Source: a virus. Taken from it: 64,000 nt of DNA. Both the position numbers and the translations under genes were made by a program. The DNA is taken from IMG/VR virus record IMGVR_UViG_3300046092_000062, positions 61,866 through 125,865 of that record, one strand, 5' to 3'. Below the pieces are notes generated by a model. The model was not told the origin of the DNA and did no database searches. It saw only the letters and a list, made by a program, of their open reading frames with translations. How positions within the stretch are numbered: position 1 is the first letter of the stretch; each line of letters opens with the position of its first letter. This document shows, in pieces, positions 7,167-50,156 of the stretch.

Positions 7167-8375
7167 ATGATTAATTTAAAACTAGGATATTACTCATGCA
7201 ACGGAGTCACGTTCGATTCTAAGATTGCTGCATGTGTGTATTCTGTGCAGCACAATAACGCATTAGTTACGTGGACATTCAACGACCGAGAGTTTAATCA
7301 GCACAACTGGACACAAGAACCTGACCTAACACTGGATCAATTGTATGATATTAGATCAAAGCAGCTAAGAGATCAGTACGACTATGTTATATTGAGCTAC
7401 AGCGGCGGCGCCGACAGTCACAATATCCTAATGAGCTTTATTCGTCAAGGCCTCCATATAGACGAGATTGTGGTAAACACAACTGAGAAAGCTAGTGCAA
7501 GATTCACAGAGTTAGATAAAAACAATCTTGACCCCCGCAATGCAGGAGCAGAGCATGTGTTTCAGACGTTGCCTAGACTACGTGAAATTCAGGGATTGAT
7601 CCCTAAAACAAAGATTAGTGTGTTGGATTTGTCGGATCATCTATTTGAGAGTTTTTCAAAAGCCGATGATGCTAGCTGGGTATTAGAAAAGCGCGAAAGC
7701 CTAAACCCAGCTGGAGTAACACGGTTTAATTATCTGCACTTTGATCAATTGCGCAAACAGTTTGATAAAGATAAAAAAATTGCATTAGTGCTAGGAATCG
7801 AAAAGCCCAGGGTGTTTATTAGACACGGACAGTTGGTACTACGGTTTACAGACCGTGCGGCCAACATTGTTACTGTAGCAGAACACGTTAAAGAATACAC
7901 AAATAGCACAGTAGAATTCTTCTACTGGAGTCCAGATGCAGTGCCAGTGGTTATCAAACAAGCGCACACTATCAAGCGATGGCTTGAGGCTAATCCAGAC
8001 AAACAGCATCTCTGGGACGTTGACACACTAACACCGGAGATGGTGAGACTAGTGCATGAGCGAGTGTACAGACCACTGCTATACACTACGTGGGACAACA
8101 GTTGGTGGCAATCAAACAAAGCAGTTAACGATTGGACAAGCGAGTTTGACCAGTGGTTTAAGGATGGGTACAGTGATACTCGTGCTTACCAAGTGTGGGC
8201 AGAGGGTATTGAGTATGTTCGTGAAATTTTGCATCCTTACATAAACACTACTCATCTTGTTAATGGTCAAGCAGACGGCCTTGACATATTTGTTAAAGAG
8301 TACTTAATTGGACCAGTGAAAAATCTTTGTCCAGAATTAAAGAATAAACTGTATAGGCATTTGCAAAATAAATAA
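7167..8375 (+). CDS. PP-loop superfamily ATP pyrophosphatase (SYSGGADS; PAPS-reductase/CysD-like fold)
   Basis: An SGGxDS PP-loop motif lies near the N-terminus. Confidence 0.6.
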   Translation: MINLKLGYYSCNGVTFDSKIAACVYSVQHNNALVTWTFNDREFNQHNWTQEPDLTLDQLYDIRSKQLRDQYDYVILSYSGGADSHNILMSFIRQGLHIDEIVVNTTEKASARFTELDKNNLDPRNAGAEHVFQTLPRLREIQGLIPKTKISVLDLSDHLFESFSKADDASWVLEKRESLNPAGVTRFNYLHFDQLRKQFDKDKKIALVLGIEKPRVFIRHGQLVLRFTDRAANIVTVAEHVKEYTNSTVEFFYWSPDAVPVVIKQAHTIKRWLEANPDKQHLWDVDTLTPEMVRLVHERVYRPLLYTTWDNSWWQSNKAVNDWTSEFDQWFKDGYSDTRAYQVWAEGIEYVREILHPYINTTHLVNGQADGLDIFVKEYLIGPVKNLCPELKNKLYRHLQNK

Positions 8376-10240: not shown

Positions 10241-11408
10241 AATTATCTCAATTGAGCCTGCAATCGATCCAGTCAATCGTCCTACATTTTTGTTGGACTG
10301 GGAACTAACAATGAAGTGCAATTTGGATTGCGACTACTGCTCGACTGGCATTGAGTACGGTGGTCACGACAACAGCACAGCACATCCTCCTAAAGACGAA
10401 TGCTTAAAAACCATTGACTTCATGTTTGCTTATGCAGACAAGTACATGCAGCTAAAGCCCAAATGGCAGCGCATGGTGGTTCTCAATGTATACGGCGGCG
10501 AAAGTATATTTCATCCAGACATTGTTGAGATCCTAGAGCAGGTGCGAGCAAGACACACATACGATTGGCCATTGACTGTTACCTGCACAAGTAACGCAGT
10601 GGCTGGTAAGAATCTTTGGGAAAAGGTTGCAAACTTAATTGATGAGTTTACCGTTAGTTTTCACAGCAGTGCATTGCCTAAACAGAGACAGCAAGTACTA
10701 GACAACATACTTTATAATAAGGCTATCGGCAGGCGCCAAAAGGTGGTGTTTGTGATGCACAACGATCCTGTTTTGTGGGATATTAGCCAACAAGCTATTG
10801 AGTTTTGTAAAACACACGATGTTAGGTATGTAGTTAAAGCAAACGACACCCCTACACCTCAGTGGCAGTATAACAAAGAACAGTTTATTTACTTTCAAGA
10901 TTACTACAAGTCACGCACACCAGCTAAGAGTAGGGATGCTCTAACAAAGGCGCTGGATGCAGTGGAAACTGACACAGTTGGCATGGGTAAGGTCGGTCGA
11001 GGTTGTTGTGGTGGCCGAAAGCTATGCACTAACCAAGACCTACAACACCCAACAGCCTTTGTACCACATGCAGATTTCATGGGTTGGAGTTGCAGTGTTA
11101 ACTGGTACTTCTTGTACATTAAACAGATCAATGGCGATGTGTACACAAACAAGGATTGCCGTATGCGCTTTGATGGTACAGTTGGTCCAATTGGTAATTT
11201 GTCAAATGGTAATCTTATACTAGAACAAGTGCAGAAAAACATTGACAACAAAGCCATGCCTGTTATACAATGTGCTAGAACAAGATGTATATGCGGTTAC
11301 TGTGCTCCAAAAGCGCAAGACCCAAAAGATTTTGAAGCTATTATGGATAAACACATAGTTGACAAGCAAGTCAAATTTGTTTATAATAACAGCTTAGATG
11401 ATAAGTAA
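10233..11408 (+). CDS. radical SAM enzyme (CNLDCDYC) with a C-terminal Cys-rich SPASM/twitch-like region
   Basis: The CX3CX2C triad sits near the N-terminus, and several CxxC/CxC clusters lie in the last 150 residues. Confidence 0.7.
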   Translation: MNKIISIEPAIDPVNRPTFLLDWELTMKCNLDCDYCSTGIEYGGHDNSTAHPPKDECLKTIDFMFAYADKYMQLKPKWQRMVVLNVYGGESIFHPDIVEILEQVRARHTYDWPLTVTCTSNAVAGKNLWEKVANLIDEFTVSFHSSALPKQRQQVLDNILYNKAIGRRQKVVFVMHNDPVLWDISQQAIEFCKTHDVRYVVKANDTPTPQWQYNKEQFIYFQDYYKSRTPAKSRDALTKALDAVETDTVGMGKVGRGCCGGRKLCTNQDLQHPTAFVPHADFMGWSCSVNWYFLYIKQINGDVYTNKDCRMRFDGTVGPIGNLSNGNLILEQVQKNIDNKAMPVIQCARTRCICGYCAPKAQDPKDFEAIMDKHIVDKQVKFVYNNSLDDK

Positions 11409-11419
11409 TTTATCACAAT

Positions 11420-11503
11420 GCGTAAGTGGTGGAATGGTATACACTCTGGTCTTAGAAGCCAGCGCCGCGAGGATTGAGAGTTCGAGTCTCTCCTTACGCA
11501 CCA
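11420..11503 (+). tRNA. tRNA-Leu(TAG)
   Basis: 84 nt long. Acceptor stem GCGTAAG/CTTACGC, D stem GTG/CAC, anticodon arm CTGGT-CTTAGAA-GCCAG, a long variable arm, T arm GAGAG-TTCGAGT-CTCTC, and an encoded CCA end. Confidence 0.8.
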
Positions 11504-11533
11504 TTTATTATTTTAAGTTTTTCTAAAAAGTGC

Positions 11534-11562
11534 TTGACACTTAATGAAACTCTTGTTATAAT
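11534..11562 (+). promoter_or_regulatory. sigma70 consensus promoter TTGACA-17 bp-TATAAT (P1 of a tandem pair)
   Basis: Exact consensus hexamers. The spacer contains the AATGAAA motif shared with the other early promoters. Confidence 0.55.
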
Positions 11563-11585
11563 AGATACATGTTAAGAAATTAACA

Positions 11586-11603
11586 AACGTTCTTTAAAAA
11601 TTT
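11586..11603 (+). promoter_or_regulatory. boxA-like antitermination element CGTTCTTTAAAAATTT
   Basis: It resembles the rrn/lambda-nut boxA (GCTCTTTAACAA) and lies about 25 nt downstream of the P1 -10 hexamer. Confidence 0.4.
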
Positions 11604-11899
11604 GTTTTGATGTAAAGTAAGCAGGCGTACCACGCTAATAGGTTGCGTGACTCTTGTCGAAAATTTGGTCCAGATAGAAAGCTGGGAACTCTTGAGTAGT
11701 CTGTAAGCGGCTACTGTGGCGTCTAACACCTATGAGTTAGAAACGATCTGTTCCACGTAGCAATACGCAGGAAGAATGATTGCAATAGAGTAGAGTAACG
11801 CTCTACCGGTTGCATGAGGGTCAACTGAAAGACGCAAGTCTTACCCGTTACCTTGTAACCAGGTAAAAAGAGGCATCAAAATAAATTTCTAAATAACTG

Positions 11900-11928
11900 T
11901 TGACAGCAAATGAAAAGTTTGCTACAAT
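11900..11928 (+). promoter_or_regulatory. sigma70 consensus-like promoter TTGACA-17 bp-TACAAT (P2)
   Basis: The second promoter lies about 370 bp downstream of P1 in the same orientation. Confidence 0.5.
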
Positions 11929-11961
11929 AGCAGCTTAGTTAGACATTGTGCTAACTAACAA

Positions 11962-11976
11962 AGTTCTTTAAAATAG
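11962..11976 (+). promoter_or_regulatory. second boxA-like element AGTTCTTTAAAATAG, followed by the hairpin GTATAAG-AAGTT-CTTATAC
   Basis: The arrangement is the same as after P1, and a boxB-like hairpin sits directly downstream. Confidence 0.4.
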
Positions 11977-12602
11977 ATACGTATAAGAAGTTCTTATACA
12001 CATGCACATAAATGCGTAGGCCACGCAGATATGGTTGGATTCATAGCTTGGGCTATTGCCCAGGTTGGCAGGTTCGAAACCTGTGAGTGTGCAGTTGTAT
12101 AAGAATTTAGGGCAGTTTAATGTCCTGCAAAGAGTATGGTTCGCCCAGCTTGATGCGAAGAATAACTGTGGTGACACAGCCAAAGGAGGTATGCCTACAT
12201 AACTCCGCTAGCAATAGTTCATTTAGACAAGCCTGCTCACTCCTGTGAGGGAGCGTTCACTCAGCGACGGGTGGATGTAACAGTGACGCAAAGTGCATAG
12301 GGAAGAACGTTTGCTTACAAGCCTGAGATTGCATCAAGGGGAACTTGAGTAGATGGAAAGTAACAGGTGGTGCTGACTTCTATGCGAAACCAACTTTGTT
12401 AATTGGTATGAGAAAGGGTAGTGTATTGGTTCGAAGGGTTGCACCTAAGAGCTCGTATGCAGTTTTAGTGGTTGGTGGACGTAGTAATACGAACATTGGT
12501 CGCAAAAGACGACTGAGTAGCTCGCAAGGCAAAAGGTACGTGGTGTGTTGTATTGTGTATTCCAAAAGATTATGCAGCAACTGAGTCAGCACATCGCAGT
12601 AG

Positions 12603-12674
12603 GTTGATATAGTTCATTGGTAGAACATCTGTCTCTTAAACAGAATGCGGTGGGTTCAATTCCCACTATCATTA
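12603..12674 (+). tRNA. tRNA-Lys(CTT) (CCA end not encoded)
   Basis: D arm GTTC-ATTGGTA-GAAC, anticodon arm TCTGT-CTCTTAA-ACAGA, T arm GTGGG-TTCAATT-CCCAC. The acceptor stem GTTGATA/TATCATT has one U-U mismatch. Confidence 0.55.
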
Positions 12675-13359
12675 CAAAACGCAAAGACTGACTCGGTCGT
12701 ATGTGAAAAGCATCTAATACTTGAGCCGCAAGGTAATCAAGTCAGACGTAACTCGCAAGGTGAAATCTGTTTATGCAGGAAGTTTCGTAGCTACTTAGCG
12801 GTGGTGAATGGCTCTAAAGGTCAACGGGATAGAAAGCGTAGAATAGCATACGGCGACAAGACTACTGCCTGTCTTTAAAAACGGCGATGCTGACAGCAGA
12901 CTAGACTACTATGCAAATAGGGTTTAGTGGAAGTCGGAAGAAAGTAGACTCGCAAGGTTTACAATAATGTCCGAGGTGTTGTTAGGTTAGGATGTATTCT
13001 CAGTCCGCCAACTTATATGCAAACACATTAGTAAAAGTCTGTAAAAGGACGAAGCAACTGACTCTGTAATAGGAGCTGTTTGCTCAGTGTGTTTACATAT
13101 AAGTATGCTTTGATGGTTAAAGTTGGATAGGTAGTGGGTAGCTTGTGAAATCATAGTAGCAAGTCCACAGCAACCCAAACGGTAGAAGCAGCTTATTTGA
13201 AAGCACATTTGTTCCTGAAAGATTTTACGGTTTGGATGGTTCAGCAAATGTGTTTCCAAATAAGAATTTGGTGATTGTGTGGAGCTAAGGCGATTCGCTG
13301 GACTATGAAGCACGACGAGAGCGTTGAACTTGAAATAGGTTCAACCACCAGACTAATAT

Positions 13360-13435
13360 GGACGGTTGGCAGAGCGTTTATGCGCCGGATTGCAAACTCG
13401 GTATAAGGTAGGTTAGACTCCTACACCGTCCTCCA
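13360..13435 (+). ncRNA. tRNA-sized element with a perfect acceptor stem GGACGGT/ACCGTCC, discriminator U and CCA, but a non-canonical T loop (TTAGACT) and an unresolved anticodon arm (possibly a 9-nt loop ATTGCAAAC)
   Basis: It is 76 nt long, is preceded by ATATGG as the other tRNAs are, and has T stem GTAGG/CCTAC. Confidence 0.35.
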
Positions 13436-13730
13436 TTTTTGCTAGTTTTTTAAAACTAGTTGTGACGTATGGAGATGAGAGATTGCACCTCTAGTTAGCA
13501 CTTGACACGCTTACTGGAATATTAATCGTGATCCAGTGACCCGAGTCCCCTGGCTTAATTGCCTTGTTTGTTGACTCTCGGAAATATTGGTATCCTCTGC
13601 TTGTTGTATTTTGCTTTAGAAAACAGTTGCCTTGAAAATCAATTATATCTAATGTACATTGCACATTGTCCCGCAATTGACTTGCCATACGTTGCACCCC
13701 TATTAAAATCAAACAGAAAGGAACTCGATT

Positions 13731-14297
13731 ATGAAATTTACACTTCGCAAAGCAAACGCCCTACAAAACACAATCCAGGAACACATCAAGACGATCGACA
13801 TCGCATTGACGGTTTCCCTTAACGAGTTCCAAAGTTCAACTTCGGTGCTTGGTACCGCACGTGAGACATTGGTCCGCAACGATGCCAAGCGCACACAGTT
13901 GACCAAGGCCTTGTACGCAGTCCGTGCAAAGGTTGGTCGCGCCAACACAGAAGCCGGTGTTGCAGATCTGTTGACAGACGCTGCATTCATTGACAAGCGT
14001 TTGGGCTTCTTAAAAGGCCTAACTGAAAGCAAGGTTGTCGAAGAAATCGCAGTCATTGAAGGCAAGCTAGAAAAGCTTCGCGCACAAGACAACAAGAACC
14101 GTGTTTACGGTTACAACGACACAGTTGACACTGGTGTGCTTGAAGCGGACCAGATTGAAGGTTACAAGGCAGAAATGCGTGACCTGAAGAAACAAAAGCA
14201 AAGCATTAATGACAAGGTCCTGGAACTTAACGTTCGCACCGAGATTGAGTTGGATGCAGATACCGTTTCTTTGCTACAGGCAGAGCAACTGGTATAA
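13731..14297 (+). CDS. hypothetical protein (coiled-coil rich)
   Basis: Clean ORF with an AAAGGAA ribosome-binding site. Confidence 0.55.
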   Translation: MKFTLRKANALQNTIQEHIKTIDIALTVSLNEFQSSTSVLGTARETLVRNDAKRTQLTKALYAVRAKVGRANTEAGVADLLTDAAFIDKRLGFLKGLTESKVVEEIAVIEGKLEKLRAQDNKNRVYGYNDTVDTGVLEADQIEGYKAEMRDLKKQKQSINDKVLELNVRTEIELDADTVSLLQAEQLV

Positions 14298-15034: not shown

Positions 15035-15057
15035 TAGCCCACTTCGGTGGGCTTTTT
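15035..15057 (+). terminator. rho-independent terminator AGCCCAC-TTCG-GTGGGCT followed by T5
   Basis: A GC-rich stem, a tetraloop and a U tract lie immediately after the dCMP deaminase stop. Confidence 0.6.
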
Positions 15058-49154: not shown

Positions 49155-50156
49155 GTCGGGCAAGTAATCTGCAATGGAGATATTCTTTAGCAGATCTTGT
49201 GTTAAAATTTCGTCAGAAAATCGCCGGAAATCGAGATCGTCTTGATCTCGATGTTCTCTAAATAATTTATTGGGATTAGATTTTTTAACATGCTCTGGTA
49301 AACAATTTAAATTAAAATATGTAGGAGATGAAACAAGATTGTGATTGTAGGACAAACCGGCATCGCGAAACCAGCCAACTGTAGCTGAGTGTTGTAGTAT
49401 GTTAAGATTGCTTATAGTGTAGCTAACAGTTAATTGGATTCCGAGGTCGCGGTATTGTTGTAAATTTAACAGTAACCGATCCCACGTTAATGGATACCGT
49501 ATGTACTCAAATGTCGGTCCAATTCCATCTATGCTCACACAAAAATTCAGTCTACTAAACTTGGATAATATTGCAAGTTGTTCTCTATTCAAATGAATTG
49601 ACCCATTGGTTACTAGCGATACAAAGCATGAGGTATTACCGGAATCGATTAATCTTTGTAACACATCAAAATTCTTTTTCTCATATAGAGGCTCGCCTCC
49701 TACAAAAGACAACATTTTTAGATTTTTAAAATCAATGTTATTAATTTGACTATCATTGATTTTAATCATTTTTTCTCCGGTATTTTTGAGACTTGCCCAC
49801 TTTGAACTTGAATGTTCGTTACAGGTAACGCAGGTTGAGTTGCAGAGATTAGATGTGTATAATTTAACTATCTGTTCAGAGAACACACCATTGGCACAAT
49901 CATCTTTAACAAACCTTATATCTTTATTGGCATAAAAATCATATGATGTGTTTTTTATCTGCCTGTCGCTTTGGATTTGTTGATCTTCTAACACCCAACA
50001 TTTACTACATTCAACAGGTCGTTGGTTCTTTAACATTTCCTGTTGTATGGTCTTTATACTTCTATTAGACCTTGCCATTAAACAACATGGGGTATCAAAT
50101 TTGTTTTTACTGTATTCTGCACCGTAAAACGGCATTACGCAAAAGGTATCATTCAT
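49128..50156 (-). CDS. radical SAM enzyme (CNSTCVTC) with an N-terminal Cys-rich domain; paralog of 3084..4307
   Basis: A CX3CX2C triad is present, and the N-terminal architecture (FCVMPFY...PCC...CSKC) matches the other paralog. Confidence 0.65.
   Translation of the reverse strand: MNDTFCVMPFYGAEYSKNKFDTPCCLMARSNRSIKTIQQEMLKNQRPVECSKCWVLEDQQIQSDRQIKNTSYDFYANKDIRFVKDDCANGVFSEQIVKLYTSNLCNSTCVTCNEHSSSKWASLKNTGEKMIKINDSQINNIDFKNLKMLSFVGGEPLYEKKNFDVLQRLIDSGNTSCFVSLVTNGSIHLNREQLAILSKFSRLNFCVSIDGIGPTFEYIRYPLTWDRLLLNLQQYRDLGIQLTVSYTISNLNILQHSATVGWFRDAGLSYNHNLVSSPTYFNLNCLPEHVKKSNPNKLFREHRDQDDLDFRRFSDEILTQDLLKNISIADYLPDLFTLLKPG

Follow-up and report, generated by a model that had tools for sequence, protein, structure and literature searches.

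Positions 11504–13730 of the window analysed here, a 64 kb (64,000 nucleotide) stretch of the IMG/VR viral record IMGVR_UViG_3300046092_000062, belong to an uncultured jumbo phage and form an operon of non-coding RNA. Its main product, at 12108–13006, is GOLLD RNA, a known phage RNA class, and the operon contains two consensus sigma-70 promoters, each followed by a short hairpin and a canonical boxA. The identity of GOLLD, the RNA structures, and the sequence, conservation and wide distribution of the promoter-hairpin-boxA cassette are established here. The nascent boxA probably recruits Nus factors, which would give a termination-resistant, RNA-chaperoning complex; its transcript, about 3.5 kb long, would be almost entirely untranslated.

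GOLLD RNA as the main product of a non-coding operon

The first-pass annotation of this segment described 2.2 kb with no open reading frame (ORF) above 110 codons, and the longest ORF on either strand of 11504–13730 is indeed 108 aa. PHROGs searches gave zero matches for six tested ORFs within or overlapping the segment, and the relatives show insertions and deletions confined to loops together with compensatory pairs throughout; protein coding is ruled out on these grounds. Folding and covariation show the region to be structured along its full length, as the annotation had supposed, and all of the contents that it listed (a tRNA, a tRNA-like element, reused bracket stems and hairpins with GNRA loops) were located. 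The main product had been regarded as an anonymous RNA, a view that is replaced by the Rfam scan, which identifies the described family GOLLD.

GOLLD RNA was reportedly described by Weinberg et al. in 2009. The match to the GOLLD model (Rfam RF02032) at 12540–13006 scores 198.8 bits against a gathering score of 150 (E 1e-54) and covers model positions 1–416 of 416; this model spans only the conserved 3' half of the RNA. The 5' domain is variable, and when aligned across 16 viral contigs it has 123 predicted pairs, of which 66 are compensatory. In one relative (L064; collected loci are referred to by L numbers) a promoter lies directly before the position equivalent to 12108. In the published description, a 5' region measuring about 420 nt is joined to the 3' region through a disordered linker, in which a tRNA is sometimes found (PMC12286853). 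The full-model Rfam match, the covarying 5' domain and the agreement of the architecture with that published (PMC12286853) together identify the window RNA as GOLLD. The family is encoded in phages near tRNA islands and forms a 14-mer nanocage as seen by cryo-EM, with its function unknown (Kretsch et al. 2025, PMC12286853).

All nine relatives scanned have GOLLD with a nested tRNA, and GOLLD is also found in Sinorhizobium phage Phosso and Caulobacter phage Magneto. In the phiCbK-like Magneto (L079, 2526–3331) GOLLD contains a nested tRNA-Lys (CTT) and is followed by a tRNA-Cys and then a small protein gene, an order common to the window clade; it is unannotated in the GenBank record.

Two promoters with hairpin and boxA leaders

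The elements that make up the two leaders and the GOLLD RNA are as follows.

11534–11562, + strand: promoter P1 (consensus sigma-70 pattern)
11570–11585, + strand: 5'-terminal leader hairpin 1, TGTTAA-GAAA-TTAACA (folding; the loop is GAAA, GCAA or GAGA in relatives)
11589–11599, + strand: boxA copy 1, GTTCTTTAAAA (perfect match to GYTCTTTAANA)
11900–11928, + strand: promoter P2 (consensus sigma-70 pattern)
11935–11958, + strand: 5'-terminal leader hairpin 2, TTAGTTAG...CTAACTAA (folding; the stem sequence differs in relatives)
11963–11973, + strand: boxA copy 2, GTTCTTTAAAA (perfect match to GYTCTTTAANA)
12108–12539, + strand: GOLLD variable 5' domain (16-sequence alignment, covariation)
12540–13006, + strand: GOLLD conserved 3' domain (Rfam RF02032, full model 1–416)
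12603–12675, + strand: tRNA-Lys (CTT) nested in the GOLLD linker (tRNA detection and Rfam)

Two consensus sigma-70 promoters about 370 bp apart had been proposed, and both are found exactly: P1 is TTGACA-17-TATAAT and P2 is TTGACA-17-TACAAT, each has a TG-extended -10, and they are separated by 366 bp. The proposal that they act in tandem stands only in that two strong promoters are present; each heads a separate RNA, with P1 preceding a structured RNA of about 330 nt (referred to here as unit 1) and P2 preceding GOLLD. Both belong to a set of host-type promoters that extends over the genome. The window contains 12 sites with at most one mismatch to TTGACA-17-TAYAAT, all on the + strand, where 1.1 are expected, and from these one-strand sites the phage appears to rely heavily on the host sigma-70 RNA polymerase.

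The boxA-like sequences that the annotation placed within 25–35 nt of each promoter prove to be exact copies of the boxA consensus, 26 nt and 34 nt downstream of the respective -10 hexamers and on the sense strand, the start sites themselves being predicted. The 11-mer GTTCTTTAAAA occurs exactly twice in the 64 kb. GYTCTTTAANA is the consensus derived from functional Escherichia coli boxA elements (PMC5725501), and at the level of sequence both copies fit it exactly, the consensus being gamma-proteobacterial. The small hairpin had been assigned to the wrong side of boxA: in both leaders it lies between the -10 and boxA. A search for boxC yielded a loosely GU-rich stretch, UUUGUUUUGAUGU, after boxA copy 1 and nothing comparable after boxA copy 2. 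A third consensus match (GTTCTTTAACA, 50025–50035, + strand) has no promoter nearby, lies opposite a minus-strand ORF, and is probably a chance occurrence.

Comparison with related phages shows how this arrangement is maintained. The closest relatives are IMG/VR contigs of 240–374 kb. Where identity over the block is only 77–80%, the 11-mer boxA is still unchanged, and the hairpin that precedes it has at least seven stem sequences and GAAA, GCAA or GAGA loops. The stem varies by compensatory substitutions among the relatives, and covariation is also seen in the seed alignment. The order of promoter, hairpin and boxA is kept in all close relatives and in most distant ones.

The cassette is also modular. 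In L062 and L008 it precedes tRNAs, and in L061 a leader of the unit 1 type is fused to GOLLD. In L165 only about 105 bp separate the P1-type from the P2-type cassette, and the unit 1 core is absent; the P2 leader and tRNA-like element there head an array of about 19 tRNAs in place of GOLLD. We note that L165 (3225–3470 and 3602–3678) has three consensus promoters in tandem over about 250 bp, of which two carry the hairpin and boxA, followed by the tRNA-like element and then by the tRNA array, the first tRNA of which has the suppressor-like anticodon TTA.

The distance from the -10 to boxA is variable (7–39 nt) and bimodal, at either 6–13 nt or 24–34 nt, and the motif is strand-specific, with 33 of 38 matches on the gene strand; both properties fit a signal that is read in the RNA. 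A DNA-level operator or promoter-proximal site, through which a phage or host transcription factor would time the non-coding RNA genes, is a very unlikely alternative. The motif is always near strong promoters, and a perfect 19 bp palindrome beside boxA copy 2 (GTATAAGAAGTTCTTATAC, 11981–11999) has the look of an operator. However, the variable, bimodal spacing is unlike fixed phasing, the motif itself is non-palindromic as well as strand-specific, and in L061 an inserted GNRA hairpin interrupts the palindrome, with compensatory changes in the arms, which fits an RNA element.

Distribution of the promoter-boxA cassette

IMG/VR was scanned with the pattern TTGACA-N16-18-TAYAAT-N5-35-GTTCTTTAAMA, which is present in at least 120 stretches, compared with 8 for a composition-matched scrambled 11-mer, an enrichment of at least 15-fold. 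The following counts apply to the matches listed. A tRNA lies on the same strand within 500 nt of the cassette in 87 of 125 (70%), and the first tRNA is often 14–19 nt past boxA (44 of 54 distinct linkers of 24 nt or less). A hairpin folds in 76 of the 84 distinct leaders in which boxA is 18 nt or more from the -10; their minimum free energy (MFE) is -5.1 kcal/mol, compared with -1.4 for shuffles (p 2.5e-14), and the loops are mostly GAAA or GCAA. At least six more cassettes precede GOLLD.

These data bear on the trivial explanation that the two motifs reflect chance or a local duplication, and that the region is merely GOLLD and tRNAs with ordinary promoters. The window taken alone gives it some room, with three matches to GYTCTTTAANA where 0.55 are expected and 2 of 100 shuffles reaching three, a weak excess in itself, and GOLLD functions elsewhere without boxA. 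However, the motif is kept in relatives that have diverged to 77–80% overall identity and whose flanks differ, and the IMG/VR enrichment over the scrambled control is not a product of near-identical copies, since the matches listed include 104 distinct spacers between -10 and boxA. A recent duplication of the leaders is ruled out, because only 14 nt are common to both. The comparative data largely refute this explanation, and we consider it barely credible.

Two further features were seen among the loci carrying cassettes. A recurrent class of promoter-hairpin-GTTCTTTAACA leaders has a ribosome-binding site and a conserved small ORF starting about 18 nt or less downstream, so that the boxA is in an mRNA leader (L127, L156, L167, L175, L177, L179, L182, L193 and L198); the ORF encodes 82–87 aa where the locus is long enough, with the N-terminus MNT.NRVWIELD. 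Matches above threshold to group I introns (Rfam RF00028) are present at L085 6941–7138 and L117 13185–13378; a boxA cassette and a ~200 aa ORF are about 700 nt upstream of them, and tRNA arrays follow directly.

A model for transcription of the operon

The segment and the genes that follow it are read as a single operon because there is no intrinsic-terminator-like site on the + strand between 11504 and 15035 and no positionally conserved promoter before the gene at 13731. The first such terminator-like site on the + strand downstream of P1 and P2 is at 15036–15053 and is the likely end of the unit.

A plausible scenario is that each sigma-70 promoter yields a transcript that opens with the short hairpin and then the canonical boxA (GUUCUUUAAAA); that from P1 would contain the ~330 nt structured RNA, and that from P2 the tRNA-like leader element and then GOLLD. 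The nascent boxA would recruit the host NusB-NusE (S10) and other Nus factors, as in rRNA operons, and RNA polymerase would become a fast, termination-resistant, RNA-chaperoning complex. This complex would transcribe about 3.5 kb, including unit 1, GOLLD, the spacer, tRNA-Cys, a structured leader, the 188 aa gene, three more tRNAs and a dCMP deaminase, and would end at 15036–15053. The nested tRNA, the tRNA-like element and the long bracket stems may serve as processing points of the RNase P, Z and III types that free the mature RNAs. The transcription starts, Nus binding, antitermination or chaperoning, and processing are steps that we infer from sequence.

Extended to other phages, the proposal is more tentative: many environmental and often jumbo phages may have placed tRNA arrays, GOLLD and other structured RNAs under an rrn-type leader of GNRA hairpin and boxA, with a Nus-built machine resembling the rRNA transcription antitermination complex (rrnTAC) protecting and folding the transcripts, although we put this at somewhat less than an even chance. 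Such a machine would shield kilobases of untranslated transcript and aid co-transcriptional folding of the 900 nt GOLLD into its nanocage, and a phage factor that reads the leader hairpin may act together with the host Nus factors.

Several observations count against a role for boxA of this kind. It is not universal for GOLLD, being absent in L064, Magneto and Phosso, and L065 has a boxA with one base deleted and a separate promoter that lacks boxA. Many tRNA promoters in the same phages have no boxA, and consensus promoters without it at the same loci also precede tRNAs in 44% of cases, compared with 70% for the boxA cassettes. About 20 of the 125 listed cassettes precede ORFs with ribosome-binding sites, which rules out the idea that the cassette is exclusive to non-coding RNA. 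No clear boxC is recognised, and the linkers between boxA and tRNA are A/U-rich and diverse. The RNA is G-rich, C-poor and highly structured (GC skew +0.13), and would for that reason be a poor substrate for Rho. Finally, in unit 1, and more so in L165, folding predicts that boxA is paired with the trailer, which would compete with binding of NusB/NusE.

This last point introduces the alternative that the 11-mer is a structural or processing element of the RNA, either one strand of a leader-trailer helix or an A/U-rich signal for RNase E, III or P that sets downstream 5' ends. Unit 1 is closed by a predicted 23 bp helix (11589–11613 with 11874–11898) in which boxA and the A/U-rich bases that follow it form the 5' strand, and in L165, which lacks the unit 1 core, the leader and trailer strands pair directly with each other. 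Spacing between the motif and the first tRNA clusters tightly, at 14–19 nt or 4–7 nt, and the motif flanks are A/U-rich. However, the 11-mer is invariant before unit 1, the GOLLD leader, many tRNAs and ORFs, in most cases with no complementary partner. A pure pairing element is expected to covary, and the closing helix never varies, so that its support is thermodynamic only. The exact NusB/E consensus and the rrn-like layout would also have to be coincidental. We therefore regard a structural or processing element as unlikely, while giving it more weight than a DNA-level site, and retain boxA-directed recruitment of Nus factors as the probable role of the motif.

Other structured RNAs in the operon

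The remaining RNA features of the operon are these.

11569–11900, + strand: unit 1, a lineage-restricted multi-hairpin RNA of about 330 nt (folding; no Rfam family)
11981–12108, + strand: leader module consisting of the palindrome GTATAAGAAGTTCTTATAC and the bracket stem 11988–12008/12088–12108 (folding, comparison of relatives)
12003–12092, + strand: tRNA-like element, class-II-like, inside the bracket stem and between boxA copy 2 and GOLLD (folding, relaxed ARAGORN)
13011–13104, + strand: 3' bracket hairpin directly after GOLLD (kept in relatives)
13105–13359, + strand: hypervariable structured spacer with a second bracket hairpin at 13192–13264 (relatives differ in sequence)
13360–13435, + strand: tRNA-Cys (GCA) (tRNA detection)
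13442–13459, + strand: small A/U-rich covarying hairpin after tRNA-Cys (covariation)
13465–13692, + strand: conserved structured RNA upstream of the 188 aa gene, no Rfam family (covariation)

Unit 1 folds with an MFE of -95.5 kcal/mol (z -4.75) and has 106 predicted pairs, of which 7 are compensatory, compared with 2.3 in shuffles and 0–2 in slid controls. Searches with nhmmer over the collected loci, together with one IMG/VR scan and a metagenome scan, recovered only about ten close variants, two of which have a divergent 3' tail and an 11 nt insertion in one hairpin. An 18-mer match in a giant-virus metagenome-assembled genome (MAG; L072) and 20-mer matches in sample Ga0307510 were considered as homologues and are unrelated.

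The leader module between boxA copy 2 and GOLLD is absent in L064, and its bracket stem covaries in L069, L065 and L061. The tRNA-like element that it encloses has a D-arm, a long variable arm and a TTCGAAA T-loop. It is not taken to be a true tRNA, as it has no Rfam tRNA match at E<=5 and is reported by ARAGORN only at a relaxed threshold; ARAGORN calls on its orthologues are restricted to some relatives and have inconsistent anticodons.

Three similar bracket stems are present (11988–12008/12088–12108, 13011–13027/13088–13104 and 13192–13211/13245–13264), and hairpins with GNRA loops also occur in the region. The 3' bracket hairpin has compensatory arm changes in six relatives, among them L001, L055, L060, L062 and L066. 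A leader-trailer helix around GOLLD was considered and rejected, since cross-pairing of the bracket arms is far less stable than the local bracket hairpins. In some relatives a conserved structured module that is absent from the window follows the 3' bracket hairpin (L055 about 7404–7520, L066 about 7314–7430, L060 about 7350–7470).

The element at 13465–13692 has 57 pairs that are 96.5% paired, and 19 compensatory changes, compared with 8.3 +/- 1.6 in shuffles (0 of 500 reaching this value) and 3–7 in slid controls. It is kept in all relatives, including one whose 188 aa protein is 57% identical to that of the window, and is a candidate for a new cis-regulatory leader RNA or small RNA. A sigma-70 promoter for the gene at 13731 within this element was rejected, as the -35-like TTGCCA belongs to a conserved helix and the spacer varies in length. 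Rfam searches at E<=5 returned no family for unit 1, the spacer or the 13465–13692 element. Unit 1 and 13465–13692 are new, unclassified structured RNAs and candidates for new families; they would add two further undescribed RNA classes to the same operon.

Neighbouring genes and relationships

The flanking features are the following; the window contains 16 tRNA genes in all.

11359–11387, + strand: promoter TTGACA-17-TATAAT before tRNA-Leu, lacking boxA (sequence pattern)
11420–11503, + strand: tRNA-Leu (TAG), the upstream neighbour of the unit (tRNA detection)
13731–14297, + strand: conserved 188 aa protein gene, probably co-transcribed with the RNA unit
15036–15053, + strand: terminator-like site (intrinsic), likely unit end

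The 188 aa protein has no Pfam domain, and 1115 metagenome clusters at 90% identity are found, nearly all of exactly 188 aa and 65–94% identical to the window protein, so that it is a highly abundant and conserved protein. It was considered as a partner of GOLLD and rejected, the protein that follows GOLLD and tRNA-Cys in Magneto not being homologous to it.

With blastn, only the tRNAs and the GOLLD core of the region matched GenBank phages (Phosso and phiCbK-like phages), and the leader gave chance-level matches only. A tblastn search with an 800 aa protein for close cultured relatives gave no match, and a host search over the genome contigs produced a single, uninformative match of 48% identity to a Haliscomenobacter MAG. 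Permuted transfer-messenger RNA (tmRNA) genes of the two-piece, alpha type were noted at L062 9437–9948, L086 8496–8776 and L079 (Magneto) 1698–2017, the last adjoining GOLLD. Those in related contigs are a possible hint at a host with a two-piece tmRNA and prove nothing.

Significance

GOLLD, its nested tRNA, the tRNA-island context, boxA and rrn-type leaders are all already known; what is new is the combination of a known RNA family with a known signal, and its breadth. The literature searched contains no paper that links GOLLD or phage tRNA arrays to boxA. GOLLD ranks among the largest natural RNAs whose structure has been solved, and the literature searched is silent on its transcription. 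If the proposed mechanism is correct, GOLLD biogenesis would become accessible to the Nus-factor tools of E. coli, since the motif fits the gamma-proteobacterial consensus, and phage tRNA arrays and ornate RNAs would join rRNA, CRISPR arrays and lambdoid early operons as targets of Nus antitermination. The cassette provides a simple searchable marker for phage non-coding RNA operons and a ready-made part for expression of long untranslated RNAs.

Comparison with known systems

The window RNA shares with GOLLD as described the full-length 3' domain match, a covarying 5' domain of about 430 nt, the linker tRNA and a location in a phage tRNA island. It differs in three additions seen in the window clade: the leader of promoter, hairpin and boxA, the tRNA-like module on the 5' side, and the conserved bracket hairpin on the 3' side. 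The GOLLD literature searched mentions none of them.

A likeness to lambdoid nut sites had also been suggested, and it does not hold for the order of the elements, which is reversed. In both systems boxA is beside a hairpin, which in the phage leaders often has a GNRA-type loop, and the lambda boxB loop adopts a GNRA-like fold. However, the hairpin here precedes boxA as in rrn leaders, whereas nut sites have boxA and then boxB; the window boxA is the full rrn-type consensus and the lambda version is weaker; and the cassette here drives mainly RNA genes. An N-like protein did not come to light in the phage, though no search was aimed at one.

Among chromosomal examples, long untranslated CRISPR arrays are shielded from Rho by boxA (Stringer et al. 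2020, PMC7665894), and suhB has a boxA upstream (Baniulyte et al. 2017, PMC5725501). Like the phage leaders, these carry a canonical boxA of the same consensus outside rRNA operons, in the leader of a long transcript that is not translated. They are chromosomal and experimentally validated, whereas the elements described here are phage-borne, have a 5' hairpin, and are predicted from sequence.

The closest parallel in layout is with the rRNA operons of E. coli, which combine boxA with a leader-trailer helix (PMC10250234). There are differences. The phage products are GOLLD, the unit 1 RNA and tRNAs rather than rRNA; the two promoters are separated by 366 bp and flank an RNA gene; no boxC is recognised; and the phage boxA is inside the predicted leader-trailer helix. 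Nonetheless, the rrn-like leader proposed in the first-pass annotation is borne out at the sequence level by the consensus boxA, by the order of the elements, and by the L165 cassettes, whose separation of about 105 bp resembles that of rrn P1 and P2. Strong tandem sigma-70 promoters, a long untranslated structured product with embedded tRNAs, and a leader-trailer helix, present here in unit 1 (PMC10250234), are common to both. Reading the E. coli rrnG sequence directly, the P2 -10 is followed by the hairpin GCCGCT...AGCGGC, then ACT, then GCTCTTTAACA ATTTATCAG; the phage leaders have a hairpin, AAC or CAAA, GTTCTTTAAAA and ATTTG. The order strings are GCTCTTTAACAATTTA in E. coli rrn and GTTCTTTAAAAATTTG in the phage, and rrnG P2 and the phage leaders share the same succession of -10, about 7 nt, hairpin, 3–4 nt, boxA and AUUU.

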